Source: Escherichia phage vB_EcoM_PHB13
Strand: one strand, 5' to 3'
Sequence record: MK573636
Length of the DNA stretch: 64,000 nucleotides
Shown piece by piece: positions 1,367-59,727 of the stretch. Position 1 is the stretch's first letter, and each line of letters starts with the position of its first letter. Below the pieces are notes generated by a model that saw nothing but the letters and a program-made list of their open reading frames with translations, had not been told where the DNA came from and did no database searches. A program made the position numbers and the translations under genes.

Positions 1367-1372
1367 ACAAAG

Positions 1373-1388: not shown

Positions 1389-1436
1389 AATATGGAGGAT
1401 AAAACTTGTTCCTGCTAAAATATGAAGTGAGGTAAT

Positions 1437-3680: not shown

Positions 3681-3688
3681 AATAAGTG

Positions 3689-3717
3689 TTGACGCGGGGA
3701 GAAATCCCCGCTATAAT
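3689..3717 (+). promoter_or_regulatory. early sigma70-type promoter TTGACG-N17-TATAAT with spacer palindrome GCGGGGA-GAAA-TCCCCGC (PeSL-like)
   Basis: -35/-10 hexamers and inverted repeat read directly, immediately after nrdA stop. Confidence 0.6.
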
Positions 3718-3748
3718 ACAACCATCAAAAACAAGTGAGGATTTTATT

Positions 3749-3916
3749 ATGACCAAATTAAAATGTGTTGCTGTAGATTTTGAGCTAGCTGATAGCTTTG
3801 TTGTCGGTGATGTATATGATGCTCGACATGATGGGACTTGCTACTACGTTGAGGATGAATACGGCGTAGAATGGGCTATTCTTCCTGATGATAAATGTTT
3901 TGAGGTTGTCGGATAA
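3749..3916 (+). CDS. small hypothetical protein (55 aa)
   Basis: ATG after GTGAGGA SD downstream of promoter at 3689; ORF-track start 3686 lies inside the promoter and is rejected. Confidence 0.5.
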   Translation: MTKLKCVAVDFELADSFVVGDVYDARHDGTCYYVEDEYGVEWAILPDDKCFEVVG

Positions 3917-4089
3917 TGGCTACTGTATGGTTATTGATTGCAATCAGCAATTCAATGTATAATTACGGAAATATGTCAAGCATTGAGTTTGCAACAAAGC
4001 AGGATTGCGTTAAAGCTCGCGAGGTTATCCGCGAAGACAATAAACGCTTTATGAATCTGTACTGTGTTGAAAAGCAGAAGGTGAACTAA
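3916..4089 (+). CDS. small hypothetical protein (57 aa), tandem paralog 1 (MATVWLL...)
   Basis: ORF below 60-aa track cutoff; N-terminus MATVWLLIA; SD GGATAA; paralogous to next ORF. Confidence 0.45.
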   Translation: MATVWLLIAISNSMYNYGNMSSIEFATKQDCVKAREVIREDNKRFMNLYCVEKQKVN

Positions 4090-4256
4090 TGGCTACAATA
4101 TGGTTATTGCTTTCCGTTAGCGTAGGCGTATATAATAAAGGAACTGTTACCAGCGTAGAGTTTTCATCACATCAAAATTGTTTTGAAGCTGTGCAGGAAT
4201 TGCAGCAGGATAGCGAAATAAACAGAAATACTAAGTTCTTTTGTGTTAAAAAGTGA
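4089..4256 (+). CDS. small hypothetical protein (55 aa), tandem paralog 2 (MATIWLL...)
   Basis: Start overlaps previous stop (TAATG); shares MATxWLL, SVEF and FCV/YCV motifs with preceding ORF. Confidence 0.45.
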   Translation: MATIWLLLSVSVGVYNKGTVTSVEFSSHQNCFEAVQELQQDSEINRNTKFFCVKK

Positions 4257-4271
4257 TAGTGAGGTGAATTA

Positions 4272-5435: not shown

Positions 5436-5908
5436 TATATTTTGTCGATTTAGATTTTACGATCACAGATCCAACGCATCGACTAGCAAAGATGCCAACC
5501 GAAAATCTTGATAAAGTCGAGTCGTGGATCGAATATAACAAGGCATGTGGGGGAGATTCCCCCATTTACGATGTAGTTCGTGTTATTAATGCTCTTTCCG
5601 ACAACGGGCATTTGATTTACATCCTCACCGGACGAAGTTCACATGCTTACATGGAAACAATTGATTGGTTAATTTCTAACGGGGTGTGTTTTGATAAAAT
5701 CTTTATGAGAGGCCGTACCGATTCCCGTAAAGACTATCACATCAAATTAGAGGTAATTAAATCCTTTGATAAAGATGAAGTTGTCGGAGTCTTTGAGGAT
5801 AACCCAGAAGTGATTAAAGTTTTGCGTGAAAATGGTTATCGTGTCTTTGACGTAGGAAATCACAAAGATAAGACGCGAGCGGATATTGCAAATCACGGTC
5901 ATGATTAA
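5432..5908 (+). CDS. HAD-superfamily phosphatase-like protein
   Basis: N-terminal DLDFTITD matches HAD DxDxT motif I; start overlaps nrdB stop (ATGA coupling). Confidence 0.55.
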   Translation: MIYFVDLDFTITDPTHRLAKMPTENLDKVESWIEYNKACGGDSPIYDVVRVINALSDNGHLIYILTGRSSHAYMETIDWLISNGVCFDKIFMRGRTDSRKDYHIKLEVIKSFDKDEVVGVFEDNPEVIKVLRENGYRVFDVGNHKDKTRADIANHGHD

Positions 5909-5920
5909 TGTTTGTTCAAA

Positions 5921-5945
5921 GTCGCCCATAGTGGCGACTTTTTTT
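5921..5945 (+). terminator. rho-independent terminator (GTCGCC-loop-GGCGAC + T7)
   Basis: 6-bp GC stem followed by TTTTTTT directly after 5432-5908 gene. Confidence 0.8.
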
Positions 5946-5956
5946 GTTATTGGGTG

Positions 5957-5985
5957 TTGACAATCTGATCTTGCCATAGCATAAT
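5957..5985 (+). promoter_or_regulatory. early promoter TTGACA-N17-CATAAT
   Basis: Hexamers read directly; 25 nt upstream of ORF 6010. Confidence 0.6.
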
Positions 5986-6009
5986 ACGCACATCGAAACG
6001 GAGGAACAT

Positions 6010-6228
6010 ATGGAAACAGAAGAACAAGTCATTGCATATTTTCATCGTAAAAAGATGAAACTTAGAATCGAAAAGCAGTACATCAATCACTACATTGACC
6101 GAGTTCACTTAACAAGTACACCTTACCTATTCCGGTTGATAAACCCTAGAAAACGGTGGGAGAAGTTGGATAGAAACACAAAAATAATTGATAAGCTCAC
6201 CCAATGGTGGAATGAATACAACAAGTAA
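6010..6228 (+). CDS. hypothetical early protein (72 aa)
   Basis: ORF with SD GGAGGAA, preceded by promoter. Confidence 0.5.
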   Translation: METEEQVIAYFHRKKMKLRIEKQYINHYIDRVHLTSTPYLFRLINPRKRWEKLDRNTKIIDKLTQWWNEYNK

Positions 6229-6242
6229 AAAGTAAAAAGTAG

Positions 6243-6270
6243 TTGACACTGAATAACGGGGTAGTAAGAT
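6243..6270 (+). promoter_or_regulatory. PeSL-like early promoter TTGACA-N16-TAAGAT with GGGGTAGTA/TACTCCC stem
   Basis: Direct reading; same cassette family as 6747 and 17337. Confidence 0.6.
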
Positions 6271-6301
6271 ACTCCCATCAAGAAAACAAAGGAGAATCAA
6301 A

Positions 6302-6520
6302 ATGAAATTTACTTGCACCGACTCTATCAACAAACACTTTGTAGTGGGCGAAGTATACGAATCTACTACCATTCGCCAGCGTGACCTGATGGGTCGCCTT
6401 TACAATCAGCCAGTATTCATTATTGGTGAAGAATTGTTCTACATTGAAAACCGTCCGTGGGTTGCTTTCAATAAACGAGGACGCAAGGTAGCAAAATTCG
6501 AACTTGTCATTAAAAAGTAG
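6302..6520 (+). CDS. hypothetical early protein (72 aa)
   Basis: ORF with SD AAGGAGAATC shared by all PeSL cassettes. Confidence 0.55.
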   Translation: MKFTCTDSINKHFVVGEVYESTTIRQRDLMGRLYNQPVFIIGEELFYIENRPWVAFNKRGRKVAKFELVIKK

Positions 6521-6549
6521 TTGACAGCATGAAACGGGGGTAGTAATAT
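6521..6549 (+). promoter_or_regulatory. PeSL-like early promoter TTGACA-N17-TAATAT with GGGGGTA/TACCCCC stem
   Basis: Direct reading. Confidence 0.6.
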
Positions 6550-6588
6550 ACCCCCCATCGAAACGAAATACACTTTAAGGAGAATCAA

Positions 6589-6738
6589 ATGAACAACTTT
6601 GACGCGGTACTGAAAATGGCAATCGAAACTTACGCGGAGATCTCCGGCGAGAAAGTAGAGGACATTATCAAAGAATGTCAGAACTTTGAAAGCCAGACAG
6701 CCAAGAATGTTCAAATGTTGATGTTTGCGGTTGCATAA
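6589..6738 (+). CDS. small hypothetical protein (49 aa)
   Basis: ORF below track cutoff, correct spacing after PeSL SD AAGGAGAATCAA. Confidence 0.4.
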   Translation: MNNFDAVLKMAIETYAEISGEKVEDIIKECQNFESQTAKNVQMLMFAVA

Positions 6739-6746
6739 AAAAGCAG

Positions 6747-6775
6747 TTGACAGCATATCACGGGAGTAGTAAGAT
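6747..6775 (+). promoter_or_regulatory. PeSL-like early promoter TTGACA-N17-TAAGAT with GGGAGTA/TACTCCC stem
   Basis: Direct reading. Confidence 0.6.
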
Positions 6776-6808
6776 ACTCCCATACCAAAACAACTAAGGA
6801 GTATCAAG

Positions 6809-7207
6809 ATGATTAAATTTCAAACTCGCAAAGACGTTCTGGACTTCGTTAAAGTTTTCGGTTACGCTGCATTGCAACATGCAATGGACAAAATGACCAT
6901 CTCCCCAGATCAGACTATGCTGATCCGTATGGTTAAAGCAACCGCCTACAAAAACGACATTACCCTCTCAGAAATCAACGACGGTAATACTGTCCGCGAG
7001 GTAATTGTTTCTTTCGAATCACCGAAAATTGGCGGTTTTCATACCACGATGTTAGGTGAAATCACTGTCACTGTATACGGGCAAGGTGGCGGAGTGTTTA
7101 CCGTCAAAGAAGCAATGGAAAATGGAACGCTGAACAAAGAAAAACTGGAATTTGTCCTGAAAATCATCAAGGAGCGTAACGAAGCTCGCGATATTCTGGA
7201 AAGTTAA
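6809..7207 (+). CDS. hypothetical early protein (132 aa)
   Basis: ORF with SD AAGGAGTATC; followed by terminator. Confidence 0.6.
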   Translation: MIKFQTRKDVLDFVKVFGYAALQHAMDKMTISPDQTMLIRMVKATAYKNDITLSEINDGNTVREVIVSFESPKIGGFHTTMLGEITVTVYGQGGGVFTVKEAMENGTLNKEKLEFVLKIIKERNEARDILES

Positions 7208-7214
7208 TAAGGTG

Positions 7215-7240
7215 GGCGGGAGAAATCCCGCCTTTGTTGT
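7215..7240 (+). terminator. rho-independent terminator (GGCGGGA-GAAA-TCCCGCC + T-rich)
   Basis: 7-bp stem and TTTGTTGT tail. Confidence 0.7.
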
Positions 7241-7257
7241 GACGTGAGGAAAGGATA

Positions 7258-7719
7258 ATGATTAATGAGCTAATAGAAAACTATGGATTCGTTAAATATT
7301 CATGTTTAGAGTGTAAAGATGGTGATGTGATTCTACCGCCTCAGAAGAACCGTTTAAATGTTCTTTATGCTATTGTGGTTGATGATGAACTGGTATACAT
7401 TGGTCAGACTGTCAATCTCAGAAAGCGGATCAATTATTACCGGACTAGCATTAACAGACAAACACCAACAGCGGATACTCGCAAGAGTAAGAATATTCAT
7501 AAGGCGCTAGAGGAAGGGAAGACAGTAACATTCTATTACCGCCAGTGCTTTGAGTTATATATTGAGAATCCAACGGGTAAAGATATTATAAGCACTGCCG
7601 ATATCGAAGAACCTGTTTTGATCACCAAATTTAAACCAGAATGGAACACAAATTATGTCAACAAAAGAAAACAACAAAAAAGTTTTAGCATTGTTCAAAA
7701 ATCTGATGGCACTATGTGA
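7258..7719 (+). CDS. denA: endonuclease II (GIY-YIG family DNA endonuclease)
   Basis: Colinear with remembered T4 DenA (YAIxxDDELVYIGxTxNLRKRINYYRT). 3' end overlaps rnlA start by ~65 nt in another frame. Confidence 0.8.
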   Translation: MINELIENYGFVKYSCLECKDGDVILPPQKNRLNVLYAIVVDDELVYIGQTVNLRKRINYYRTSINRQTPTADTRKSKNIHKALEEGKTVTFYYRQCFELYIENPTGKDIISTADIEEPVLITKFKPEWNTNYVNKRKQQKSFSIVQKSDGTM

Positions 7720-8824
7720 CGGATCTGATACGTTCTATTACAAAGATGAAATTACGGCGATGCAAACCCGTATGCGCATTTTTAGCTATCTGTACTTGAG
7801 CAAACCGGAAATGTGGAATAAACCAGATGCGTTAGAGTGTCGCGGGATCATGTTTGAAATTGACGATAAAGGTCGTCCGGTCCGCATCGCATCTCGTCCT
7901 ATGGAGAAGTTTTTTAATTTGGGTGAGAATGATCGCGCTCGCTTTAAGCCGGAAGATGTGGAAATGGTCATGGACAAAATGGACGGTAGTCTAGTAAGCA
8001 CATACATTGATAACGGCTATGTTCAGTTGAAGTCTAAAGCGGCCTTGTACTCAAGCCAGGCAGAGAGAGCAAACGGTCTTCTGTATTCAGAGAAGTATGC
8101 GGATCTACGAGCTAAGATCGCTGATATTGGGTCTGATTATACTTTCAACTTTGAATATACAGCACCCAGCAACCGAATTGTTGTAGAATATTCTGAACCG
8201 TCGCTAACACTTCTGAATGTACGCCATAACGTCACAGGAGAATACGTACCGCATCAAATGCTATTTGCTGACGCAATCCTACGTTCTCATCTGGTAAATG
8301 CGTTACAGGTTGATTCAGCGCGTTTTAGTAATATTCTTGATGAAGTTCGGACCGCAGAAGGTATCGAAGGAATTGTTGCACGCACTAAAGACGGTCAAAT
8401 GTTCAAGGTGAAGAGTGAATGGTATATTGGTGTGCATAACATTAAAAACACATCGATGTTTCCTAATAACCTGATCTACTATGTCGTAGAAAGCGAAACC
8501 GATGATTTGCGTGCTGCATATGAAGGCGAACCGGAAGCACTGGAACGAATCGAGCTATTCGAGGAAGCATTCAGGTCTATTCTTCGCAATGCCTTCACGA
8601 CAGCAACAGAATTTTATAACGCACACGCGGGAGAAGACAGAAAGACATATGCATCCAATGCGACTATCGAATCACGTAAACATGGTGACGCACAAGCATA
8701 TATTTTCATGTGTCTGATGATTGCATTTGATGGTCTTGATTATGACCGTATTCTGGCTTCAATGAAAACCTACTATCTACGGAATTATAAGAAACTGATT
8801 CCGGCTGATAAGATTGATTGGTAA
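7655..8824 (+). CDS. rnlA: RNA ligase 1 (T4 Rnl1 / gp63 homolog)
   Basis: Strong match to T4 RnlA incl. ALECRGIMFE, VRIASRPMEKFFNL and adenylylation motif KMDGSL. Start may be a downstream Met. Confidence 0.88.
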   Translation: MSTKENNKKVLALFKNLMALCDGSDTFYYKDEITAMQTRMRIFSYLYLSKPEMWNKPDALECRGIMFEIDDKGRPVRIASRPMEKFFNLGENDRARFKPEDVEMVMDKMDGSLVSTYIDNGYVQLKSKAALYSSQAERANGLLYSEKYADLRAKIADIGSDYTFNFEYTAPSNRIVVEYSEPSLTLLNVRHNVTGEYVPHQMLFADAILRSHLVNALQVDSARFSNILDEVRTAEGIEGIVARTKDGQMFKVKSEWYIGVHNIKNTSMFPNNLIYYVVESETDDLRAAYEGEPEALERIELFEEAFRSILRNAFTTATEFYNAHAGEDRKTYASNATIESRKHGDAQAYIFMCLMIAFDGLDYDRILASMKTYYLRNYKKLIPADKIDW

Positions 8825-8830
8825 TAATAA

Positions 8831-8854
8831 GCGGGGCTTGCCCCGCCTTTTGTC
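8831..8854 (+). terminator. rho-independent terminator (GCGGGG-CTTG-CCCCGC + TTTTG)
   Basis: Read directly after rnlA stop. Confidence 0.7.
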
Positions 8855-8866
8855 GTTGGGGGTAAT

Positions 8867-9190
8867 ATGTCAAAACTGATATACATTGTTATCATATCTG
8901 TGTTGCTGGGGGTAGGTGGCAATATGTGGTGGGAAAATAAAAAGGAGGTAGATCGACTGAATCAGGAATTTACAGAGTATAAGAAAAAGACAGATGAGAA
9001 GATGAAGATTGTAGACTCACTACAAAAGGAGATGTACGGAATAAGAACTAAGTTTGCAGAAGAACAAAACAAAGCAATGAAAGACGCTACACGAGGCTAT
9101 GTAGTAGCACAAAAACCCAAGTTGGTAGAGAAACAGCTTAATGATTCATTTAAGGAGTTTACCGAAGAATTAAAGGAGGCTACTAAATGA
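8867..9190 (+). CDS. putative i-spanin (N-terminal TM helix + periplasmic coiled-coil)
   Basis: 107 aa; hydrophobic LIYIVIISVLLGVGG then charged helical region; next to pseT where T4 places its spanins. Confidence 0.55.
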   Translation: MSKLIYIVIISVLLGVGGNMWWENKKEVDRLNQEFTEYKKKTDEKMKIVDSLQKEMYGIRTKFAEEQNKAMKDATRGYVVAQKPKLVEKQLNDSFKEFTEELKEATK

Positions 9191-9306
9191 GCATAGAAAT
9201 ATTGCCTACACAAGAGCAGATAAGCAATTTTAATCTGGTTGATTATCTGTGGATAGGTGCAAGCATTATTATCCTGATGGTGTTTTCAATTTTCGTGATA
9301 CACTGG

Positions 9307-9639
9307 ATGTTTAAGAAAGCACATAAGAATTTTCAGACCGCCATAATCCATGTCTTCGCTGTGCCTATTGTATTTGCTCTTTCTTCGTGTACAATGGACC
9401 ATTATTCACAGGAACCGAAATTACATCCTCCACTACCAGCACCAATAGAAAAAGTTGACATTGACCTGAATGTGGATACAATAGACGGTAAGCCTAGAGT
9501 TTCTATGTCGTGGGAGGACTCCCAAAAATTTAGAGTCTGGTTGGCTGATATTAAGAGATATACACTTGAAAGTAAGTTGATCCTGTGTTATTATCGCAAA
9601 GAACTCAATGAGGAACGGTGTAAACCGAAGGAGAAATAA
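9307..9639 (+). CDS. putative o-spanin lipoprotein (lipobox LSSC)
   Basis: Signal peptide MFKKAHKNFQTAIIHVFAVPIVFA + lipobox LSS-C, Pro-rich mature part. ORF track opens at 9187; the Met at 9307 is chosen because it gives a lipoprotein signal. Confidence 0.45.
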   Translation: MFKKAHKNFQTAIIHVFAVPIVFALSSCTMDHYSQEPKLHPPLPAPIEKVDIDLNVDTIDGKPRVSMSWEDSQKFRVWLADIKRYTLESKLILCYYRKELNEERCKPKEK

Positions 9640-10517
9640 TGCCGAAATGTGAAGTGATTTTAACCGTTGGTTGTTCTGGGTCCGGTAAAACTACATGGGC
9701 TATGGAAACGTGTAAACGGTTTAGTAATTATCGTAATGTGAATCGTGATGATCTTCGTCTTATGTTGTTTGGTGTTGACTCACCTTTGAAATACAAATAT
9801 ACTAAGGAAAAGGAAAAGCTGGTAGAGTCTATTCAGAGAATGATTGCTCGCGAGACTCTATCACGCGGATTAAGTATCATTATCTCTGATACTAACCTGA
9901 AAGAAAAACATCGTGTATTCTACAAAGAACTTGCAAAAGAATTTAACGCGGTGTATACTGAACAAGTGTTCAATGAATCATTTGAGACACTAAAGAAACG
10001 TAATTTCTATCGCGGCGAGAAAGCAATTCCACTTTCTCATTTGCGCAACCAATTTTATCTGATGCAGGAATATATGGGTCAAGAAGTATACAATCCGAAT
10101 ACCATGCTGCCGAAGGCAGTGATCTTTGATATTGATGGAACATTAGCGGATAAGGGCGGTCGTCATCCGTTTGACTGGACAAAGGTCAAAGAAGATAAAC
10201 CACGTCCGCAAGTGATCGAAATGCTTAAACTGTATCGTGATAATGGCTATCGTATCATTACATGCTCAGGGCGTGAGGATGTTTGCGAAGAAGATACTCT
10301 GCAATGGTTGCGTGAACAGGGTATTGAACCGAGTGATCACTTTCAACGTGAAACTAATGATCGTCGTCCTGATCATGAAGTGAAGAAAGAGATTTTCTTC
10401 TCTGAAATTGCACCGCGTTATCATGTTGTGTTGGCAGTAGATGATCGTGATCAAGTGGTTGACATGTACCGCTCAATTGGTGTAGAATGTTTTCAGGTTA
10501 ACTACGGAGACTTTTAA
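9639..10517 (+). CDS. pseT: polynucleotide 5'-kinase / 3'-phosphatase
   Basis: Colinear with T4 PseT: Walker A GCSGSGKTT, NRDDLR, phosphatase motif VIFDIDGTLA, C-terminal RSIGVECFQV. Confidence 0.9.
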   Translation: MPKCEVILTVGCSGSGKTTWAMETCKRFSNYRNVNRDDLRLMLFGVDSPLKYKYTKEKEKLVESIQRMIARETLSRGLSIIISDTNLKEKHRVFYKELAKEFNAVYTEQVFNESFETLKKRNFYRGEKAIPLSHLRNQFYLMQEYMGQEVYNPNTMLPKAVIFDIDGTLADKGGRHPFDWTKVKEDKPRPQVIEMLKLYRDNGYRIITCSGREDVCEEDTLQWLREQGIEPSDHFQRETNDRRPDHEVKKEIFFSEIAPRYHVVLAVDDRDQVVDMYRSIGVECFQVNYGDF

Positions 10518-10720
10518 TGTTTACCGATAAAATCAAGCAATTAGGCGAAGCACTTGCTAAACGTGGTTTTAGTGTTGATATTGAACCAGCGCCAGTTATG
10601 CCGTTTAGCGATGAACGTCGTAGTTTATATGTCATCATGAGAAATAATCATGGTGTGAATACATTCAATGTAAAACAGTATAGCGACGGATCAGTAGAAT
10701 ACTTTCGCGTATACGGTTAA
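10517..10720 (+). CDS. hypothetical protein (67 aa)
   Basis: ORF coupled to pseT stop (TAATG). Confidence 0.45.
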   Translation: MFTDKIKQLGEALAKRGFSVDIEPAPVMPFSDERRSLYVIMRNNHGVNTFNVKQYSDGSVEYFRVYG

Positions 10721-10741
10721 TTAATATGTGAGTATTATATT

Positions 10742-11248
10742 ATGTTGTCACAAACTTACATGCAGATCGCCTATCTAATCGCAAAGAACTCTAAATGCGT
10801 TTCGTGGAAGGTAGGCGCACTGATCGAAAAAGACGGGCGAATCATTTCTACTGGATTTAACGGCACTCCAGCAGGGCAAGTAAATTGTATCTGTCATGCA
10901 CATAAAAGCGGTTGGCTGGATGATGACGGCAAAATGATCTCAGAAAAACGACCAGAGCATAGTGCATGGTCACAGAAAAACGAGATCCACGCTGAATTAA
11001 ATGCTATTTTGTTTGCTGCCCGTAGCGGTGTATCGATTGAAGGCGCTAGTATGTGGTGTACTGCTTCACCGTGTCCAGATTGCGCTAAAGCAATTGCAAA
11101 CAGTGGAATTAAACATTTATACTATTGCGACACATATGATCGAAATGGTGGGCGTGATTGGGCTGATATTCTGAATAATGCAGATATTACGATCACGCGT
11201 ATTCCAAAAGCATTATTGACTGATTTGAAGGGTATTGATAATGACTGA
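10742..11248 (+). CDS. cd: dCMP deaminase
   Basis: Zinc-binding deaminase motifs HAELNA and SPCPDCAKAI; T4 synteny (pseT-cd-31). Confidence 0.88.
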   Translation: MLSQTYMQIAYLIAKNSKCVSWKVGALIEKDGRIISTGFNGTPAGQVNCICHAHKSGWLDDDGKMISEKRPEHSAWSQKNEIHAELNAILFAARSGVSIEGASMWCTASPCPDCAKAIANSGIKHLYYCDTYDRNGGRDWADILNNADITITRIPKALLTDLKGIDND

Positions 11249-11561
11249 ACAAGTTGATAATATCGCACTTCGTGAAGCACTAAAGAAAATGTTTTCGGTC
11301 GGTACTCACTCTTTGCAGTTTACTAAGAAAGATGGTACTGTCCGTGAGATGATCGCCACGCGAGATCCGGCACTGATGCCATTTGAAACATACGAAAAAT
11401 GGTTAGTTCCTAATGTTGAAAAACCGCGTAAAGAATCAGAAACATCTTTGCCAGTATATGAAATTGCAGTTGAAGGTTTCCGTAGTTTTGGGCTTGATAG
11501 TCTGATTAATGTAGACGGGCTGACTCCAGCGCAGATCGTCGAAATTTACGGTGGCAGTTGA
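11235..11561 (+). CDS. hypothetical protein (108 aa)
   Basis: ORF overlapping cd stop. Confidence 0.45.
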   Translation: MIMTEQVDNIALREALKKMFSVGTHSLQFTKKDGTVREMIATRDPALMPFETYEKWLVPNVEKPRKESETSLPVYEIAVEGFRSFGLDSLINVDGLTPAQIVEIYGGS

Positions 11562-12175
11562 CAATGGAAACAAAAGATGATAATATCGTATTACCAGCGC
11601 CGGAAGAATGGAGACAAGCTGTAGGTTATCCGTGGTATGAAATCTCTAATTATGGTAGATTGAGATCTATTGACCGAAGTATCGAATTTTATAGAGAAGT
11701 TTCTCCCGGTAATATTAAGCTCGTAAAACAAAAACGTGCTGGTAAAATAATAAAACCAATTTTAGACCGATATGGATATTATTATTCAACATTGTCAAAA
11801 CAAAAAGACAATGGTAAAATCTCAGTTAAAGCCGAAAAGATACATCGACTTGTAGCAAATGCATTTCTAGGAGACGTTACCGGACTTGAGGTTAATCACA
11901 TCAATGGTGTAAAAACCTGCAATTATGTGTGGAATCTAGAAATAGTAACCTTACTAGAAAATATGAGACATTCATTTAGAACTGGACTCAATAACAATGT
12001 CGGTGAAAACCACTCACGGGCAAAACTGACAAATGCGCAAGTCGAAGAAATAATGCGGCTTAAAGGAAAAGTTAAGAAGCAAATTATAGCTGATATGTTT
12101 AATGTTTCTTATTGTTGTATAGCGCAAATACATTCCGGTCTGCGGAGAAATCCAAAGGTCGCGAAATATAAATAA
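11558..12175 (+). CDS. HNH homing endonuclease (Mob-like, NUMOD4-type N-terminus)
   Basis: PWYEISNYGRLRS motif and HNH core HINGVKTCNYVWNLEIVT; inserted between cd and gene 31. Confidence 0.7.
   Translation: MTMETKDDNIVLPAPEEWRQAVGYPWYEISNYGRLRSIDRSIEFYREVSPGNIKLVKQKRAGKIIKPILDRYGYYYSTLSKQKDNGKISVKAEKIHRLVANAFLGDVTGLEVNHINGVKTCNYVWNLEIVTLLENMRHSFRTGLNNNVGENHSRAKLTNAQVEEIMRLKGKVKKQIIADMFNVSYCCIAQIHSGLRRNPKVAKYK
12167..12174 (+). promoter_or_regulatory. late promoter -10 box TATAAATA upstream of gene 31
   Basis: Exact TATAAATA ~38 nt upstream of gene 31 ATG, overlapping end of HNH gene. Confidence 0.5.
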
Positions 12176-12211
12176 TTTACTATTGAGATGAATTGAAGAG
12201 GTAAGAAAATT

Positions 12212-12535
12212 ATGACCGTTAAAACTCCTAAAGCACTTGGTGACTATGTGATCATTGAAGCTAAAGCGGAAAGCGCAGGGACCGAAGTAAAGAGCGATTT
12301 TGGTATTATCATCGAGCAAAAACGAACTATGGGAGAGATTCCTTTAGTCGGTAAGATTATTGATATCGGTGATAACGTTGATAAAGAATTGCTGGGCAAG
12401 ACTGTATTGCTTCCTCATGGGAAACTTAATAAAGTTCCTCATCCAGACGTTATTAACGGCGTTAAGAAGGAAGAAGAGATCGACCTGAAATGGACTGTAA
12501 CGCACAAACAGAATATTGTGGTAGTTTACGGTTAA
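12212..12535 (+). CDS. gp31: co-chaperonin GroES homolog (gp31), capsid folding
   Basis: 107 aa; colinear with T4 gp31 (GEIP loop, NKVPHPDV); SD GAAGAGGTAA. Confidence 0.8.
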   Translation: MTVKTPKALGDYVIIEAKAESAGTEVKSDFGIIIEQKRTMGEIPLVGKIIDIGDNVDKELLGKTVLLPHGKLNKVPHPDVINGVKKEEEIDLKWTVTHKQNIVVVYG

Positions 12536-12546
12536 TGATTTTAAAC

Positions 12547-12576
12547 GGCGGGAAATAATCCCGCCTATATTTTGGC
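12547..12576 (+). terminator. rho-independent terminator (GGCGGGA-AATAA-TCCCGCC + TATATTTT)
   Basis: Read directly after gene 31. Confidence 0.65.
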
Positions 12577-12617
12577 TATATGATTTTGTAAGTTATTGAT
12601 TATTAAGGAATTTTATT

Positions 12618-12782
12618 ATGAAAACTATGAATGTAAACATCCACGAAATCCATACCGAAGTATTCACCGAAGAAGACCAGTTTGGTGTATGGGTAAATCC
12701 TCATTCGATTACTATCGATATTCCTAATGACGATTATGATCCGTTCTCTCTGATTAGCGAGATTAGTTTCAATGACTTCTGA
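12618..12782 (+). CDS. small hypothetical protein (54 aa)
   Basis: ORF below track cutoff; acidic; weak SD. Confidence 0.3.
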   Translation: MKTMNVNIHEIHTEVFTEEDQFGVWVNPHSITIDIPNDDYDPFSLISEISFNDF

Positions 12783-13251
12783 AATTGATATCTATGCGGG
12801 TGGACCTTATCCATCGGGTGAATTGAGTAATTTCAATAAAAGACCATTCCGTCTATTTGGTTGCGATATTAACAGCACAGAAGGATTTTTACAGGGGCTA
12901 AGATTTAAGAACCCTCAGAGACAAAGAGAAATCTTTTTGATGCATGGTGGCAAAGCAAAAAGAACCGGAAGAACTGAAAAGATTGAGAATCACATGTTAT
13001 ATTTTCAGGGTCGCCCGATTCATCGAATGAGTGAGCATTATTACAAACTGGTACATCTGGCATTTGTTACGATGGCACGGAATAACCCAGAATTTTGTAA
13101 AGCATTACTCTCGACCGGAAATAAGAAATTACGTCATAGTATAGGTGGAACTGATCCGTTAAAGACTATATTGACTGAATCGGAATTTTGTAGTATCCTC
13201 AATGATATTCGTGAACGTTTAACAAAACGAGGTGAAAATGTCAATTCTTAA
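12772..13251 (+). CDS. NADAR (YbiA/DUF1768)-like protein
   Basis: Motifs LSNFNKRPF, STEGFLQG, GKAKRTGR, LLSTGNKKLRHS match NADAR family signature from memory. Confidence 0.55.
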   Translation: MTSEIDIYAGGPYPSGELSNFNKRPFRLFGCDINSTEGFLQGLRFKNPQRQREIFLMHGGKAKRTGRTEKIENHMLYFQGRPIHRMSEHYYKLVHLAFVTMARNNPEFCKALLSTGNKKLRHSIGGTDPLKTILTESEFCSILNDIRERLTKRGENVNS

Positions 13252-14734
13252 TATCATTAATCAGCTTGCAGCAACAGACAAAACATCGCTGAAAGAAAAG
13301 ATCCTGAAAGAATCTGCAAGCAATGAAACGCTGAAAGAATGCTTTTATCTGGCATATTGCAAACAGGTTACGTTTGGCGTAAAGAAATACGATAAACCAT
13401 CGCGTTATTCGTCTGTATTGTCTTTATCCGGTGCATTACAGGTCTTTAAAAATAAACTTGCCACGCGTCAAGTAACTGGTAACGCAGCATTACAGCTAGT
13501 TACCGATACTCTGACTTGCTTGTCAGAAGATGATGCTAAAGTTGCAATGATGGTCCTGAATCGTGATCTGGAATGTGGTTGTTCCGCTACCACTGCAAAC
13601 AAGGTATGGAAGAAACTGATCCCCCAGCAACCGTGTCACCTTGCATCGTCATGTTCTGATAAGACTATTGCTAATATCAAGTATCCGGCGTATGCACAAC
13701 TTAAAAGCGATGGCGCTCGTGGTATGGCTGATATTGACGGGGAAACATTAGCAATCTATACCCGTTCAGGTAATACCTATCAGGGACTTGATGATTTGTT
13801 TGCGGTTTTAGAGCGTCTACGAGGCCGTGGAATTGTTCTAGATGGCGAATTGGTATATATGCCTACCCTTTCGCAAACACCAGCGCAGAACTTCGTTGAG
13901 AGCATTTATGATGGTACTCTGTCATGGATATTTGAAGAAGAGGAAATGCCATTAACGCCAGTAGCGGAAGCAGTAAAAGAATCCGTTGTTGCAGATCGTC
14001 AGACCGGAAATGGTATCCTCAACAAATCACTGAAAGGAACTATTCCAAAAGAAGAAGCCCAATGTATTGTTTACACTGTCTGGGATGTTATCGACCGTGA
14101 TGTGTATTACGGAAACGAGAAAGCAACGAAGCAATATAAAGATCGATTCGAAGAACTAAAACAGATTGTTGAAGAACTTAACGATCCTCGTGTTCAGATA
14201 ATCGAAAACACTGTAGTTAACAATATAGATGAAGCTCGCGAAGTATATCATCGCTATGTAAACATGGGCTTAGAAGGTATTATCCTTAAAAATTTACATG
14301 GTGTATTTGAAGATCGTCGCAGTAAAGATCAGGTTAAATTTAAAGAAGTGATTGACTTCGACGCGGAAATTGTTGATGTATATCCGCATAGTAAAGACCC
14401 TAATAAGGTAGGCGGTTTTACTGTCCGTAGTGCGTGCGGACGAATGATGACTAACACCGGATCGGGATTGACTGACACCACAACCGAAAAAGGTGATGAT
14501 GGTATTGAACGTGTAATTCCGTTCGATCGTCGAAATGAACTCGACCGAGAAATGTTATGGGCTGACCGTCATAACCTGATTGGAAAAGTCATTGAGATGA
14601 CATGCAACGGGTATATCCGCAGCAAATCACGTAAAGAAGATGAACCGGAGTTCTCTTTATTTCTCCCGATCATCAAACGTATTCGCTACGACAAGACCAC
14701 TGCAAATACAGTAAAAGAGGTATTCGATGTGTGA
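13232..14734 (+). CDS. gp30: ATP-dependent DNA ligase
   Basis: 500 aa; colinear with T4 gp30 incl. RDLECG and adenylylation motif KSDGARG. Confidence 0.9.
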   Translation: MKMSILNIINQLAATDKTSLKEKILKESASNETLKECFYLAYCKQVTFGVKKYDKPSRYSSVLSLSGALQVFKNKLATRQVTGNAALQLVTDTLTCLSEDDAKVAMMVLNRDLECGCSATTANKVWKKLIPQQPCHLASSCSDKTIANIKYPAYAQLKSDGARGMADIDGETLAIYTRSGNTYQGLDDLFAVLERLRGRGIVLDGELVYMPTLSQTPAQNFVESIYDGTLSWIFEEEEMPLTPVAEAVKESVVADRQTGNGILNKSLKGTIPKEEAQCIVYTVWDVIDRDVYYGNEKATKQYKDRFEELKQIVEELNDPRVQIIENTVVNNIDEAREVYHRYVNMGLEGIILKNLHGVFEDRRSKDQVKFKEVIDFDAEIVDVYPHSKDPNKVGGFTVRSACGRMMTNTGSGLTDTTTEKGDDGIERVIPFDRRNELDREMLWADRHNLIGKVIEMTCNGYIRSKSRKEDEPEFSLFLPIIKRIRYDKTTANTVKEVFDV

Positions 14735-15200
14735 TAATGAAGGGGCGAAAGCCCCTAAACCTAAAAAATTGTCAAAGAAAGAGCAACGCCAGATCCTGAA
14801 AATGAAATATGGTGGACGTTGTGCCTATTGTGGCGAGGAACTAGGGGATCGCTGGCACGCAGACCACATCAAACCAGTATTGCGACGCTCAAAGGTAGTC
14901 TATGATGAAAATGGACGAATTGCCCGTAATGATGATGGATCGTGGAAGTATAAGGTTGTAGGAATGCATAAACCGGAACATGATATACTTGATAACATGA
15001 ATCCGGCGTGTGTGCAATGCAATCTTTATAAAAGCTGTATGGGCTTAGAATACTGGCGTAAGTTTATACGCGAGAACTTCCAGAAGTACATTCAGCGAAA
15101 TATGGGGTTGCGAGCGGCTAAACGCTTTGGCTTGCTGTCAATTCATGACCAGCCAGTAGAATTTTATTTCGAAAAGTACGAGCGCGAAAATAAGGAGTAA
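14727..15200 (+). CDS. HNH endonuclease (zinc-finger type)
   Basis: CAYCGEE...HADHIKP...NPACVQCN HNH signature; hairpin GGGGCGAAAGCCCC sits in first codons so true start may be Met26 (14802). Confidence 0.6.
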   Translation: MCDNEGAKAPKPKKLSKKEQRQILKMKYGGRCAYCGEELGDRWHADHIKPVLRRSKVVYDENGRIARNDDGSWKYKVVGMHKPEHDILDNMNPACVQCNLYKSCMGLEYWRKFIRENFQKYIQRNMGLRAAKRFGLLSIHDQPVEFYFEKYERENKE

Positions 15201-15207
15201 CCATTAT

Positions 15208-15552
15208 ATGTTCTTTATGTTTATCTATATCCTTTTTGTTTTCCTGGTAGGCATGTACGCAAGCCGTTTAAACCGTAGCGTTATCGGTTATGTTCTCCTA
15301 TCTTTGATCATTAGCCCGTTGATCACCTTTATCATTTTGTTGGTGTTGGGTCCAACTAAATCATATGAACAGGAACAAGCAGACAAGCTAAAAGCAGAGA
15401 TGGTAGAGAAACAATTTGTTCAACTGTATCTAGAAAACCCAGAGTTTGAGGAAGTTTCCACCCTTAAGCGAATGTATGACGATCTAACACGATACCCTAA
15501 CTATCGAAATGTGCTGGCTATGGAAGAAGCCATTAAGCTCATGAAAAAATAA
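15208..15552 (+). CDS. small membrane protein (2 predicted TM helices)
   Basis: Hydrophobic segments FIYILFVFLVGMYA and VLLSLIISPLITFIILLVLG. Confidence 0.5.
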   Translation: MFFMFIYILFVFLVGMYASRLNRSVIGYVLLSLIISPLITFIILLVLGPTKSYEQEQADKLKAEMVEKQFVQLYLENPEFEEVSTLKRMYDDLTRYPNYRNVLAMEEAIKLMKK

Positions 15553-15565
15553 TTCAAAAAAGTTG

Positions 15566-15594
15566 TTGACAGGGGATCACGTATCCCCTATACT
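15566..15594 (+). promoter_or_regulatory. PeSL early promoter TTGACA-GGGGATCACGTATCCCC-TATACT
   Basis: 17-nt spacer is a perfect palindrome. Confidence 0.65.
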
Positions 15595-15637
15595 ACACAC
15601 ATCAAAACGAAACACACTTTCTTAAGGAGAATCAAAA

Positions 15638-15949
15638 ATGAAATACATCGTAACGCTGCCAATGATTGACTTCGACGGAACCATGAACACCCAGAAGACC
15701 ATGAGCGCGGAGAACCAACTGAAAAACGCTACCCTGATTCGTGAAGTTCGCAAGGCACTGGCAAAAGAATTTAACACCAAAATTCATTCTGTAACTGGCG
15801 AACGTTTCGCGGATCATCTTGATATCAATATCAAACCAGTGCGCAACGGTGTTATCTCTGTAACAACCAACCGCCCACATGCTGACGCTGATAATCTGAC
15901 CGCTCGCGCAGAAGATGTAATTATGACCGTTATCATGGAAAAACTTTAA
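15638..15949 (+). CDS. hypothetical early protein (103 aa)
   Basis: ORF with PeSL SD AAGGAGAATCAAAAATG. Confidence 0.55.
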   Translation: MKYIVTLPMIDFDGTMNTQKTMSAENQLKNATLIREVRKALAKEFNTKIHSVTGERFADHLDINIKPVRNGVISVTTNRPHADADNLTARAEDVIMTVIMEKL

Positions 15950-15958
15950 AAAAAGTTG

Positions 15959-15988
15959 TTGACAGGGGAGGTTAAACTCCCCTATAAT
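15959..15988 (+). promoter_or_regulatory. PeSL early promoter TTGACA-N18-TATAAT (GGGGAG/CTCCCC stem)
   Basis: Direct reading. Confidence 0.65.
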
Positions 15989-16022
15989 ACACACATACCG
16001 AAACGAACTAGGAGAATCAATT

Positions 16023-54709: not shown

Positions 54710-55525
54710 TTAATCTACGAAGAAATAATTTTTGTTTTTATCGGTATTTGATTTAAGTCTTCCGACAATCAATCCTCGCTTAACGTTTAATTTTATAACA
54801 GCTTCTCCTATGCTATTGTATATCACTCCGTTGATGCTTATTCTTCTTGATCTAGTGCTAGTTATTCCGAGTCTAGATTTGCTAATTCTTTCTCTCCATT
54901 CTTTAGTAAAAACACGTCCGGTGTGTTTTTGTCTTATTTTATCTTTCACCTCATCGGATAACGATAGCCCCTTATGTGAATCAGACATTTTTCTTCTCGT
55001 TTCTTCTGTATGTCTTTTTCCTAAATTAATCATCCTTAACTTTTCTTTTGTCTCCTCTGCAATAACTTTTCCTAAGTTATTTTGTCTCATCTTTTCTTTT
55101 GTTTCTTCCGTGTGCTTCCTTCCCTTTTGAGATGCGGACATCTTTTGTCTTGCATCTTTAGTATGTTTCCTTCCGGTATTTTTCTCTGAGATCTTTTTTC
55201 TCATTTCTTCTATCTTTGCTTCATCAGAAACCTTCCACATACAAACAGTGCCACCGCCTTCTGCTATATTATATGTGTCTTCTCTCCTGACAAAATCAAC
55301 CGTAACAATCCTTGCCTCTTCTTTATCCGCATCTTCTCTGCTATCAAATTTTGACAATATCTCTTTAGTGAAATTTTCTAATCCGTGATGCTTAATAGCT
55401 TGTTTTATTATTTTTCCACTTCCCATGTATTTTGTATCGTCTTCTGCCAATCCATCACAAGACCGAACACCTACGTAAATCTTATCGTTTATTTTGTTGG
55501 TTATTTTGTATACATAATGTTCCAT
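54710..55525 (-). CDS. GIY-YIG homing endonuclease (Seg-like) with three NUMOD3 repeats
   Basis: GIY-YIG core YVYKITNKINDKIYVG...NIAEGG; three RKHTEETKEKM-type repeats; sits between genes 13 and 14. Confidence 0.75.
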   Translation of the reverse strand: MEHYVYKITNKINDKIYVGVRSCDGLAEDDTKYMGSGKIIKQAIKHHGLENFTKEILSKFDSREDADKEEARIVTVDFVRREDTYNIAEGGGTVCMWKVSDEAKIEEMRKKISEKNTGRKHTKDARQKMSASQKGRKHTEETKEKMRQNNLGKVIAEETKEKLRMINLGKRHTEETRRKMSDSHKGLSLSDEVKDKIRQKHTGRVFTKEWRERISKSRLGITSTRSRRISINGVIYNSIGEAVIKLNVKRGLIVGRLKSNTDKNKNYFFVD

Positions 55526-55578: not shown

Positions 55579-56511
55579 TTATATCATTAGTATACCAAAT
55601 GGTGGATCTAAGTCAAGTAATTCTTGTCGTAATTTCTCAATATCCGCGCGTGCTTCTTCGATGATTCTGACACCATCAACTGTTACACCACCTGGTAATT
55701 GCAACCCTTGATGTTTAGCTAAGATCTGCCCCCATAGCTCACGAGTAAACGCGGTCGCGCAGTCTTTAACCCAGCGGTTATTATATGCGCCCTGCTTGTT
55801 CTCACTGATCGGTCCCATGCCAGCAACAATCCCGCTTAAACCAGCAGTTGGATTATCATAAACGGCGCTAATCCCGCCAGCGGTAGAACATCCTCCAGCA
55901 TGAGCATAACCAGCAACCGCGCCGATCATATCAGGAACGTCTACATAGCTTTTAACATATAATTCAACAACAATGAGATCACCTTCTCGGAAGTTTCCTG
56001 TAATCTTAAGTTGTCCGTTTGCGCTATTATACCAATAGTCTGGCAGTGGATTAAGCATATTTTGCATAGTGGCTCGATAGCTCATAAGCTGTTCGAAATA
56101 TCCTAGATCACCGCCCATTGCATTTGGACCATAAAATTTACTACATCCAGATCCTAAACCGCCATTTACACCAGCTAAACCCAACAGAAAGTCAGTAAAC
56201 CACGGATAAACGGCAGTGCCATCCATCGTAGCCGCGCTACCTACGTTTGTTCTAATTATTTTAGTTACTGCGAATACCCCAGAATCGCTTAAATCAAATA
56301 CCCCGTGTTGCGCTTGCTCTGCACTAACACGAAATACTTTATATCCTTTATTCACACCATCGAAATGATATTCCCCATAGAGTTCTAATGCTCTCTGAAT
56401 ACAATCGTAAATCTGGTCTTCTGTTACTTCTACGTTAATTACTGGTGCGCCTAAACGACGCAGAATAGCGTCTTTTAATTCTCTTGGGTTATTTGTTACA
56501 TATCCTGACAT
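55579..56511 (-). CDS. gp13: neck protein
   Basis: 310 aa, N-terminus near-identical to T4 gp13 ([37 protein letters not shown]). Confidence 0.92.
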
Positions 56512-56532
56512 AATATCACCTATAAACGAAAA

Positions 56533-56557
56533 AGGGGCTTAACGCCCCTTTAATTTC
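56533..56557 (-). terminator. terminator-like hairpin (GGGGCGTTAAGCCCC + TTTT) between wac and gene 13
   Basis: Same hairpin family as + strand 19247 and 23024, here on - strand. Confidence 0.5.
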
Positions 56558-58327
56558 TTATACCGGAGAAATTCCAAAGAGGAACTCTTTAATTTGTAGC
56601 TGTTGCGCTAATGCTTCTTCGGATACGCCCTTAATGCGAATATCGATCCGGTCGCCCTTTTCAATATTTAGGAAAGCACTGGTAGAATAGCTAATTAAAT
56701 CATCAGCTCCATAATGACCATTTCGTACCTCATGTACAATCAGACCATTTTTAGCAATACCGACTACGAAAGTAGCGTTATGTGCCGCATTTACAGAACA
56801 ACGGAAATCACAACGGAATAAGCCTTTGTCGTTAACCGTAACAAGAGATTCGCTCTTAACCATTCCACGCGCAGGAACTTCTTCGGTCATATCGTTTAGC
56901 GGAATCGGTTTATAAACATCCTGTTCGTCAAGTTCAACCGTAATATCTGCGGTATTTTTAAATGCTCCAGCAGCATATGCAACTTGCACCCATTCGCCGT
57001 GCTTACGCAGATAATGAAAACCGTCATCAGGTACATCATCTACTTTGTTTCCGTTAGATGTTTGTAGCTCTTTGACGATTTTAATCACGCCTTTCTGAGT
57101 AAATGGATCTTCTGAACCATCATCGCCATAGATATCACTTGATAGTTTAATAACGCCAGCGGTCAAACCTGATTCGCGATCACCTACAAGCTGTTCCATG
57201 TCCTGTACGCTTGCTTCTAACCGACCCTGAGTGTTTTCTACAACTTTAATACGTCCGGCTAGAGTATGTCGATCGCTGTCAGTGCCAATCTCATTGGAAA
57301 GTCGAACAACTTCACCGCGCAAACCGTCAGCACCGCTTACACCAACAACCTGTTTAAGATCTAAAAATTCTCGCTCTGTGTTGGTTAATCGATAATCAAT
57401 GCTTCCAGCCGATTGAGGCGTTCCGATCTTATTCTCGACAGCCAGAAGACGAGGACGAATACCGGAATCTACACCATTAACATCATTGTTTAGACGTTCA
57501 TAATTAGTTCCCAGCGTAGTGACTTTAGTCCCGATATCAGGGATTGAATCAAACAAAATTGCTTTCTTGACTTCTAGAACTTCGTTTGATAAGTTAGCAA
57601 TGTTTCTTGCGTTGGTGCGGAGACGAACATACACATTTTCTTGTGTTGCAAGAGACGTGTCGCCGATCTCACTGCGCATTTTGTTAACTTGTCTTGTTAA
57701 CTCGCCTACGTCAGAATCTTGCCAGTCGTTTTCAAGCTGAACGATTCGGCGACCGTGGTCATTTAATGCTGCGGTATTCTGAATAACTCGGTATTTGATG
57801 CCAGAACCGGAACTGCCAGCATCAGGGGAACCATTGATATTAAAGTTAGGATAAGAACCCATTTCTTGTTTGATGAAAGAAATGTCATCATAGATTGTTC
57901 TTGTGCTAGGATCGGCAGCGGGGCGATCACCAATCTTGATGTTAAGTTCTGATACAGCGTCTACCGTTGTTTGCAGAGTTCTTGCTGTTTCTCCTAAGTT
58001 CTCTTCGACGGATTCAACTTTTGCGACAGTCTGGTTAACCACATCAATGATACTTCCGTCAGAAATTACCCCTAAAGTTGTTTTAATATCGTTAACCGCC
58101 GTTACAACCTCGTTAACTTTAGCGACGGTTGATTTTGCGTTTTCGTTTACGCGTGCAACGTTTTCTTGAATTGCAACAGGGGCGCGGTTAAGCGTCCCGT
58201 CATTGCCAGTCTGTGTCGTTGCTGCGCTTAAACATTCGCCATTCTTGATCCAGTTAATACGGTGCTGTCCTTCGCTTGGTACACCGTCAACATGTGGGAT
58301 CTCGTGGATGTTTAATTGTTCAATCAT
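56558..58327 (-). CDS. wac: fibritin (whiskers) with extra C-terminal domain
   Basis: N-terminus matches T4 fibritin (VDGVPSEGQHRINWIKNGE); foldon-like YLRKHGEWV is followed by ~140 more residues. Confidence 0.85.
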   Translation of the reverse strand: MIEQLNIHEIPHVDGVPSEGQHRINWIKNGECLSAATTQTGNDGTLNRAPVAIQENVARVNENAKSTVAKVNEVVTAVNDIKTTLGVISDGSIIDVVNQTVAKVESVEENLGETARTLQTTVDAVSELNIKIGDRPAADPSTRTIYDDISFIKQEMGSYPNFNINGSPDAGSSGSGIKYRVIQNTAALNDHGRRIVQLENDWQDSDVGELTRQVNKMRSEIGDTSLATQENVYVRLRTNARNIANLSNEVLEVKKAILFDSIPDIGTKVTTLGTNYERLNNDVNGVDSGIRPRLLAVENKIGTPQSAGSIDYRLTNTEREFLDLKQVVGVSGADGLRGEVVRLSNEIGTDSDRHTLAGRIKVVENTQGRLEASVQDMEQLVGDRESGLTAGVIKLSSDIYGDDGSEDPFTQKGVIKIVKELQTSNGNKVDDVPDDGFHYLRKHGEWVQVAYAAGAFKNTADITVELDEQDVYKPIPLNDMTEEVPARGMVKSESLVTVNDKGLFRCDFRCSVNAAHNATFVVGIAKNGLIVHEVRNGHYGADDLISYSTSAFLNIEKGDRIDIRIKGVSEEALAQQLQIKEFLFGISPV

Positions 58328-59727
58328 TAGCGCACCCTTATGATATAGTTTAATGCCAGACTCTTGACGCGAGTCTCGTTAGCCGTTCTTACGGATCTTC
58401 CTGAGTCAAAGTTAACAGTAGTACCCCAATCATCACCACCACCGTTTTTATAGTTCGTGCTCCATTGACCGCGCTGTGCAGTAAATGCTCCACCATACCA
58501 ACCGCGCCAGCGGTCAGCTACAGGGAATTTACCAGTAATTCTCTGCATTGCGTCTTCTTGATAAGAACCAAATCGACGACCTGGATCAAGGTTTCTTCCA
58601 TGATCGCAACCACGAGCAACTAAACCGCGCATATCAGGAATGTTAAAATTGTCACCTGAACCACCAAAGGTATAACCAATCGCAGAAAATAATTGCGGAT
58701 ATTGATTTTTATTCAGCGAACGACCATTACAGATCAGAAAGTCACCTCGATCGGCATTGAATCCAGAAAGGATAATACCACCAATTGGCATTGCGTGATT
58801 CGCTAATTCATTTTTAGTAACAAACTGGTTGCCGTCTGAGTTTGAACCTTTATAGACGTTTCCGCTTACCGTACCGCCAGTGCTAGGAAGAACCTTAGCA
58901 TTTGCTGATAGTGCAGCGTTAGCCTCACTTCCCACGGTGTCTCGTAGTTTAACAATACCGTATTGAGACGTTGTTGCCTTAGTGCTTGCAAACTTCTTAG
59001 CAGAAACAACTACAGTATCATCTGAACCAGCATTCATCTGTGACTGACTGGCGATCTTAACAGTACCCGCCTGATTCTCATTGGCGCGAGCATTTGCAAA
59101 TGCATAAGGACTAATTGCAAAACCTTCTCGAATCTGGCCTTGTAAAACTTGCGCATTGGTTGCTAACTGAACTAAACCCTGTGCGCTTTCGGTTGCTGTG
59201 TTTTGATCTGGAATTAATCCAGGTACAATCTGTGCAATGGCAGTGTGCATCTTTTTCGGTGTTACTGCCATTGTGTCATCACTGCCAATCTTTGCCGCCT
59301 CAAGAGAACATATCTTAATAGTCCCCTGAACGCTCTCTGACGCCTTTTTAGTGGTGAAGTAATGGTTTAGTGTGTCTGGACCGATTGCTATGTTCTCGTT
59401 GCTCTCTTGCAGCGATTCTTCCATCGTGGCAAATCGGGTAATGCCTTTTACTTCTTTTGTGGCATCTGGACGTGACATTTTAACAGCCAGTGTTTTTGGA
59501 GTCACGATCTTATTGTCTACTGTCCCGTCGTTTACTTCTTCCTGAGTTGCGATTGCAGCGATCCCGGCTGTATCTTCCGTAGCGTCCGGTAATCCATTTA
59601 CGGCAAAGCCATTAATAGCGGCTAAAGCCGCTTGTACGTTGGTAATGCTTTGAGGCCAATCATTTACAGGGTTAAACTTGACGTATTGAGCATCGTCTTT
59701 TACATGGTTAATAGTATTGTTTGCCAT
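58327..59727 (-). CDS. gp12: short tail fibre protein
   Basis: 466 aa; colinear with T4 gp12 (YVKF.P, ATESAQGLVQLAT, REGFAISPY, DMRGL, LALNYIIRV). Confidence 0.92.
   Translation of the reverse strand: MANNTINHVKDDAQYVKFNPVNDWPQSITNVQAALAAINGFAVNGLPDATEDTAGIAAIATQEEVNDGTVDNKIVTPKTLAVKMSRPDATKEVKGITRFATMEESLQESNENIAIGPDTLNHYFTTKKASESVQGTIKICSLEAAKIGSDDTMAVTPKKMHTAIAQIVPGLIPDQNTATESAQGLVQLATNAQVLQGQIREGFAISPYAFANARANENQAGTVKIASQSQMNAGSDDTVVVSAKKFASTKATTSQYGIVKLRDTVGSEANAALSANAKVLPSTGGTVSGNVYKGSNSDGNQFVTKNELANHAMPIGGIILSGFNADRGDFLICNGRSLNKNQYPQLFSAIGYTFGGSGDNFNIPDMRGLVARGCDHGRNLDPGRRFGSYQEDAMQRITGKFPVADRWRGWYGGAFTAQRGQWSTNYKNGGGDDWGTTVNFDSGRSVRTANETRVKSLALNYIIRVR

Follow-up and report, generated by a model that had tools for sequence, protein, structure and literature searches.

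The foldon of T4 is in wide use as a trimerisation tag, and this is the chief reason why fibritin is known. Folding nucleators at the C-terminus are common in phage fibres. In T4, fibritin attaches to the neck by its N-terminal domain, and its folding needs the foldon only (PMC3797505). Fibritin trimers of RB49 have been reported as neck whiskers that bind the long tail fibres (PMC3797505). A passage in Letarov & Krisch (2013, PMC3797505), citing Letarov et al. 2005, distinguishes eight forms of fibritin C-terminus, one of them an "RB49 type"; according to the same passage, the expanded C-terminal domain of RB49 is required for folding, and the foldon-like motif alone is insufficient. JS98 (double foldon), RB43 (Ig-like domains) and Aeh1 (separate chaperone) have likewise exchanged the C-terminal module and kept the N-terminus and shaft, and variant fibritins may have additional functions (PMC3797505). 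A 2022 paper described the C-terminal moiety of Wac in RB49-like phages as unrelated to that of T4 (PMC9569957). The extra domain analysed here is therefore already known, as part of the RB49-type fibritin described in 2005. Our additions are incremental and consist of a fold assignment, a distribution, a co-occurrence with gp36 and a crossover inside the gene. A literature search combining fibritin, C1q and phage found nothing on the fold of the fibritin head.

The window analysed here comprises 64,000 nucleotides of Escherichia phage vB_EcoM_PHB13 (record MK573636). The gene under study, wac, is an uninterrupted open reading frame on the minus strand, flanked by a gp12-like short-tail-fibre gene 12 (58327..59727) and a gp13-like neck gene 13 (55579..56511). 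The order 12-wac-13 is also annotated in RB49, JSE and other records and is the position expected of a fibritin gene. The product matched PHROG 1056, "fibritin neck whisker", over aa 1-581 (E=5e-186), and residues 5-432 of T4 fibritin (2bsg) aligned with its aa 6-427 (E=4e-50). With the Pfam, PHROG and T4 matches all above threshold, we identify the product as fibritin (Wac). The gene was 100% identical in nucleotide sequence to the "neck whiskers protein" gene of Escherichia phage vB_EcoM_011D4, and it shared 95.3% nucleotide identity with wac of RB49 (AAP04366.2). On the strength of these identities, the source phage is assigned to Krischvirus, the RB49-like phages. The features of the locus were as follows.

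56558..58327, minus strand: wac, fibritin neck whisker protein, 589 aa and stop codon, from the open reading frame and the PHROG 1056 and T4 2bsg matches.
58178..58327, minus strand: putative N-terminal neck-attachment domain, about aa 1-50, the block closest to T4 fibritin.
57044..58177, minus strand: shaft of segmented coiled coil, about aa 51-428, which aligns collinearly with that of T4 fibritin.
56978..57043, minus strand: foldon-like motif with core VPDDGFHYLRKHGEWVQV, about aa 429-450, where the match to Pfam Fibritin_C finishes.
56561..56977, minus strand: extra C-terminal head, aa 451-589, a predicted TNF/C1q-like jelly roll, the 139 residues past the end of Fibritin_C.
56900..56903, minus strand: recombination crossover in the head, codons 475/476, placed by RB49/JSE diagnostic sites and sliding-window identity.
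56531..56551, minus strand: terminator-like hairpin, AAAGGGGCGTTAAGCCCCTTT, and subsequent T-run, just 3' of the wac stop codon.

Most of the PHB13 protein follows the T4 plan. The N-terminal domain and the shaft were collinear with those of T4 fibritin, and the block most alike lay near the N-terminus, where aa 7-83 matched PDB entries 1ox3 and 2ibl (E ~1e-15). The foldon core was also kept. The foldon equivalent, DDVPDDGFHYLRKHGEWVQV (aa 430-449), fell within a strong match to Pfam Fibritin_C (PF07921; aa 368-451, 103.9 bits against a cut-off of 21, E=5e-30). This match covered profile positions 2-92 of 93 and stopped at aa 451; thus, the family model ends where the extra domain starts. In a phmmer alignment, aa 425-449 (NGNKVDDVPDDGFHYLRKHGEWVQV) paired with residues 456-480 of the 487-residue T4 chain, with identity at 10 of 18 foldon core residues, the Tyr, Arg and Trp among them. 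The second AlphaFold model predicted a β-hairpin at aa 438-442 and 445-449, so that the Y-x-R ... W-V hairpin directly follows the last coiled-coil segment. The Y, R, W and Q of the motif were retained in all 14 aligned RB49-type fibritins, even where the heads were only about 26-30% identical to that of PHB13.

In contrast to T4 fibritin (1aa0, 1avy, 2bsg), whose chain ends a few residues past the foldon and in which the foldon alone drives trimerisation, PHB13 Wac continues for 139 residues beyond the motif. The original prediction had proposed about 140 extra residues past a foldon-like YLRKHGEWV segment, encoded at 56558-56977 on the minus strand. Both the extent and the position were borne out, the latter exactly, with the codons at 56561-56977 and the stop codon at 56558-56560. 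The end of Fibritin_C at aa 451 and the alignment to the T4 foldon confirmed that YLRKHGEWV is the foldon equivalent, and no foldon was found at the C-terminus, where the true one would lie if this segment had been misidentified. One detail needs a small correction: the T4 chain runs a few residues past ...EWV, so that its foldon does not strictly stop at this motif.

In the comparison with related phages that the prediction suggested, all 9 Krischvirus wac genes were exactly 1770 nt long, with no indels. The ratio dN/dS in the head was about 0.17 (0.15-0.18) between the RB49-type and JSE-type alleles. The terminator-like hairpin lies downstream of the stop codon, and the G2248 and Makalu_003 records annotate a terminator at the same site. 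Given the lack of indels, the low dN/dS and the hairpin downstream, the head is genuine coding sequence and not a read-through artefact.

A HMMER search of 1.84 billion representative proteins returned three matches to the head. Two were genuine, and both were fibritins (589 and 591 aa). The third (P0005, 696 aa), matched in six stretches, was a tandem-repeat, low-complexity protein with Ig-like repeats, and we judged it spurious because its score was a sum over the repeats. In the phage collection, the head occurred only in annotated fibritins, in 57 Krischvirus records and 9 records of Serratia and Cronobacter phages, and it was preceded by a foldon-like motif in every case. The carriers outside Krischvirus were Serratia phages 92A1, WSPA, 4S, PS2, Muldoon and SP1 and Cronobacter phage VP8. 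Judged by its sequence, the head is almost an orphan, a module specific to fibritins.

Word-indexed protein searches yielded no distant relatives of the head, only one foldon fragment and two partial gene calls, each of 110 aa, from the fibritin head. One such 110-aa protein was traced to an ENA metagenome contig, the Krischvirus-like TONG22-1 scaffold_107 (L001:4409-6001), where it was a call from an internal Met codon. The remainder of wac on this scaffold, from gene 12 up to the 110-aa open reading frame, bore no gene call. Calls of this kind, with the rest of wac left uncalled, explain why the full-length fibritins of the group were missing from the word-indexed search.

An AlphaFold2 single-chain model of aa 451-589, based on a 5-sequence alignment, had a mean pLDDT of 73.4 and a pTM of 0.66. 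The model was all-β with about ten strands, and it could be superposed on ten-stranded members of the C1q/TNF-like jelly-roll fold. The first 45 or so residues were modelled weakly (pLDDT 39-67), and the prediction for a longer construct (aa 416-589) was less good, at a pLDDT of 65; the models rest on 5-6 sequences. A Foldseek search of the PDB with the head model retrieved 4-1BBL, cerebellin and C1QL with probability 1.0 and a TM score of about 0.5. Among viral models (BFVD), the matches were phage tail-fibre, collagen-repeat and C1q-domain proteins, with many tail-fibre C-terminal domains. The closest structural matches included the "CBD" of the cyanophage A-1(L) short tail fibre (8ke9) and the cyanophage A4 tail fibre (9k09), as well as the Photorhabdus TNF-like lectin (9ib6), PRD1 P5 and BclA.

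Profile comparisons gave fainter signals. Four of six family members matched Pfam BclA_C (PF18573), with a best E value of 3e-4, and PHB13 itself scored 18.6 bits against a cut-off of 38. Three of the six matched Pfam C1q (PF00386; best E 0.018), again below the gathering score, so that neither of these C1q/TNF-like families was matched above it. A profile search of PDB sequences returned nothing relevant, only chance matches to ribosomal protein L15 (E ~0.2). Considering the moderate-confidence model, the agreement of two fold-search methods and the weak Pfam matches, the head very likely adopts a TNF/C1q-like fold, but its sequence does not place it in a particular family.

The head differs from its structural relatives in several respects. 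The C-terminal domain of BclA (1wck, 3twi; PF18573) and the C1q/TNF heads share only 9-19% sequence identity with it. They are carried on collagen-like stalks in BclA and C1q, whereas the stalk of PHB13 Wac is a coiled coil followed by a foldon. The cyanophage domains (A-1(L) and A4; 8ke9, 9k09) and the PRD1 P5 head (1yq8) belong to tail or vertex fibres, which make contact with the host. The PHB13 head, in contrast, is located on neck whiskers, and the known partner of their T4 counterparts is the long tail fibre of the phage itself. PHB13 Wac is also unlike the JS98, RB43 and Aeh1 modules, in that the foldon is kept and a jelly-roll head is added. To our knowledge, the TNF/C1q fold forms a compact trimer in every one of the matched proteins. 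In BclA, C1q and collagen NC1, the fold caps a trimeric stalk at its C-terminus and nucleates the assembly of the stalk. From the trimeric stalk and the behaviour of this fold family, we infer that the head of PHB13 Wac forms a threefold trimer.

These features suggest that the head is probably a trimeric cap which nucleates folding and provides a docking site for the long tail fibre. Its architecture, conservation and restricted distribution are matters of observation. The chain consists, in order, of a neck-binding domain, a coiled-coil shaft of T4 length, a foldon-like β-hairpin and what is predicted to be a TNF/C1q-like jelly roll of about 137 residues. Together, three copies of the jelly roll would make up a compact, globular head at the far end of each whisker. 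This head would act as the C-terminal nucleus for trimerisation and registration, from which the coiled coil would zip up. A trimeric head at the whisker tip fits the published need of RB49 fibritin for its C-terminal region in folding, and the folding role is taken from that literature. As far as can be judged from the fold family and the co-occurrence with a long gp36, the head may also serve to dock the long tail fibre at its knee region, built by the enlarged 496-aa gp36. Such docking would allow the whiskers to aid fibre attachment and retraction, as the C-terminus of T4 fibritin does. The RB49-type protein would then be a natural case in which the foldon-like motif is kept, is reportedly insufficient, and is supplemented by a second trimeric module that caps the whisker. 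The fold assignment also offers a concrete hypothesis for the variant fibritin C-termini and for their pairing with variant gp36 at the tail-fibre knee. It leaves the main verdict unchanged: the extra domain is conserved and already described in a phage genus that is well sampled.

Covariance between the fibritin C-terminus and gp36 was proposed earlier (Letarov & Krisch 2013, PMC3797505). RB49 gp36 (gene 36, L011:25157-26647) is 496 aa long, and T4-like phages aligned only to its aa 1-171/184. At least 80% of its C-terminal 231 aa was matched in 67 records. Among the gp36 matches listed, only phages with the Wac head and one further phage, Skers, were present, and the C-terminal extension of about 310 aa was found at full length only in Wac-head phages. 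This co-occurrence supports a partnership between the head and gp36 at the tail-fibre knee, although the shared ancestry of a few related genera would explain it equally well. Fine-scale covariation between head allele and gp36 allele was looked for and not found. The gp36 of vB_EcoM_011D4, the twin of PHB13 in wac, was 99.6% identical to that of RB49 and that of JSE only 95%, while the PHB13 head is of the JSE type. This leaves two options: one gp36 surface accommodates both head alleles, or the head makes no contact with gp36.

Two further observations were made in these comparisons. Some parts of the RB49 gp36 extension are similar to proximal tail-fibre subunits from other phages and to the L-shaped tail fibre of T5. 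In the Skers record (MW748999.1, positions 1-16000), labelled "complete genome", a baseplate wedge gene is followed by the large terminase gene, with two small hypothetical open reading frames between them. We considered Skers as a Krischvirus devoid of wac and rejected this, since the record is without genes 9-16 altogether; the gap is most likely an assembly gap and not the mark of a whisker-less phage.

The original prediction had also suggested that a distal domain on the whiskers could provide an accessory adhesin or environmental sensor. The distal position after the foldon stood, while the proposed role fared less well: the TNF/C1q-like fold speaks for it, and the conservation of the head, its tracking with gp36 and the folding role in RB49 speak against it. 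According to this alternative, the six whisker tips would bind a host glycan or an environmental ligand, allowing reversible pre-adsorption or sensing independently of the tail fibres. Several of the closest structural matches are indeed binding heads at fibre tips (8ke9, 9k09, 9ib6, PRD1 P5 and BclA), and tail-fibre C-terminal domains are frequent among the BFVD matches. Krischvirus lineages have traded the head independently of gp36, and the head shows a dN/dS about twice that of the shaft (~0.09 within the genus). The literature also allows additional functions for variant fibritins (PMC3797505).

The pattern of variation within the genus argues against an adhesin. Head identity within Krischvirus ranged from 80 to 100%, with zero indels and a dN/dS of at most 0.18 between the head alleles, despite the varied E. 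coli and Shigella hosts reported; there was no sign of hypervariability. The variable positions were spread evenly, 25 of them among the 80 predicted strand positions and 22 among the 59 others, and were not concentrated in loops. No positive selection on the head was found in the comparison of these alleles. The one higher dN/dS, 0.76 between JSE and G2248, came from only 10 nonsynonymous and 4 synonymous changes. No lectin or carbohydrate-binding family in Pfam was matched at threshold, and among the matches listed the head tracked the long gp36. The receptors of RB49 are reported to be recognised by its tail fibres, long and short (PMC9569957; bioRxiv 10.64898/2026.04.02.716166), and the biochemistry summarised in the passage on RB49 gives its C-terminal domain a role in folding and trimerisation (PMC3797505). 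The selection pattern (dN/dS 0.15-0.18, no indels) fits a conserved partner better than an arms-race adhesin. We therefore regard an adhesin as unlikely, and as less likely than a folding and docking cap. The question is now directly testable with the isolated 140-residue domain.

A more far-reaching form of the same idea would give the head a genuine ligand-binding function, such as that of a lectin recognising a glycan of the host or the gut. The whiskers of Krischvirus and Muldoonvirus would then constitute a second, fibre-independent system for attachment or sensing, with alleles traded by recombination, possibly through co-conversion beside the GIY-YIG endonuclease described below. This seems to us rather doubtful, somewhat more so than an accessory adhesin. 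Least credible is that the head is an intramolecular folding chaperone only, cleaved off or idle once the virion is mature, in the manner of the chaperone domains known from the T5 L-shaped fibre and from endosialidase tailspikes: C-terminal nucleators of this kind are familiar, and folding depends on the expanded C-terminal region in RB49 fibritin but on the foldon alone in T4 (passage on RB49 in PMC3797505), but Peptidase_S74 and other intramolecular-chaperone families in Pfam gave no match at E up to 1 and the TNF/C1q jelly roll is a stable part of the mature molecule in all matched proteins, both of which disfavour a cleaved or transient domain, the foldon-head junction bears no conserved cleavage motif, only an invariant Ala-Ala dipeptide, and a conserved foldon would be redundant if the sole task of the head were to nucleate folding.

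Returning to the head as a trimeric cap, we found that the PHB13 version is of mixed descent. The fibritins of RB49 and PHB13 are both 589 aa long, lie in the same order 12-wac-13 and share 98-100% nucleotide identity over codons 1-475. From codon 476 the PHB13 head is the JSE allele, and over the whole domain it has about 82% amino acid identity with the RB49 head. At sites that distinguish RB49 from JSE, PHB13 carried the RB49 base at 309 of 315 before nt 1250 of wac and at all but three of the listed sites between nt 1305 and 1425. From nt 1428 onward it carried the JSE base at every listed site except one, which matched neither (64 of 65 after nt 1450). Judged from these sites, the head is chimeric, with aa 451-475 of the RB49 type and aa 476-589 of the JSE type. 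Between the RB49 and JSE lineages, dS in the head was 0.76-0.91, below the 1.6-1.8 of the shaft, which is consistent with exchange of the head module within the genus. The crossover is single and sharp; it shows that the module has been exchanged recently within one fibritin type, and this slightly qualifies the published view that C-terminal swapping has long ceased.

The 3' end of gene 13 (to about 55579) again showed a JSE-like signal, and gene 14 returned to RB49-like sequence. Between genes 13 and 14 lies an open reading frame of 271 aa (54710..55525, minus strand) with GIY-YIG (SegE-like), NUMOD3 and I-TevI DNA-binding matches, and the JSE-like tract ends at this endonuclease. This reading frame is missing between genes 13 and 14 in RB49, JSE, G2248, JK32, Makalu_003, SSG23 or UPWr_E1. 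G5211 has one at this position, and it gave no blastn match to that of PHB13. It is plausible, though unproven, that one-sided co-conversion by the homing endonuclease caused the mosaic in wac. The wac gene of Shigella phage JK32 was also mosaic: its gene 12 end was RB49-like, its shaft divergent, and its head JSE-like from about codon 540. Recombination within the head is therefore not unique to PHB13.
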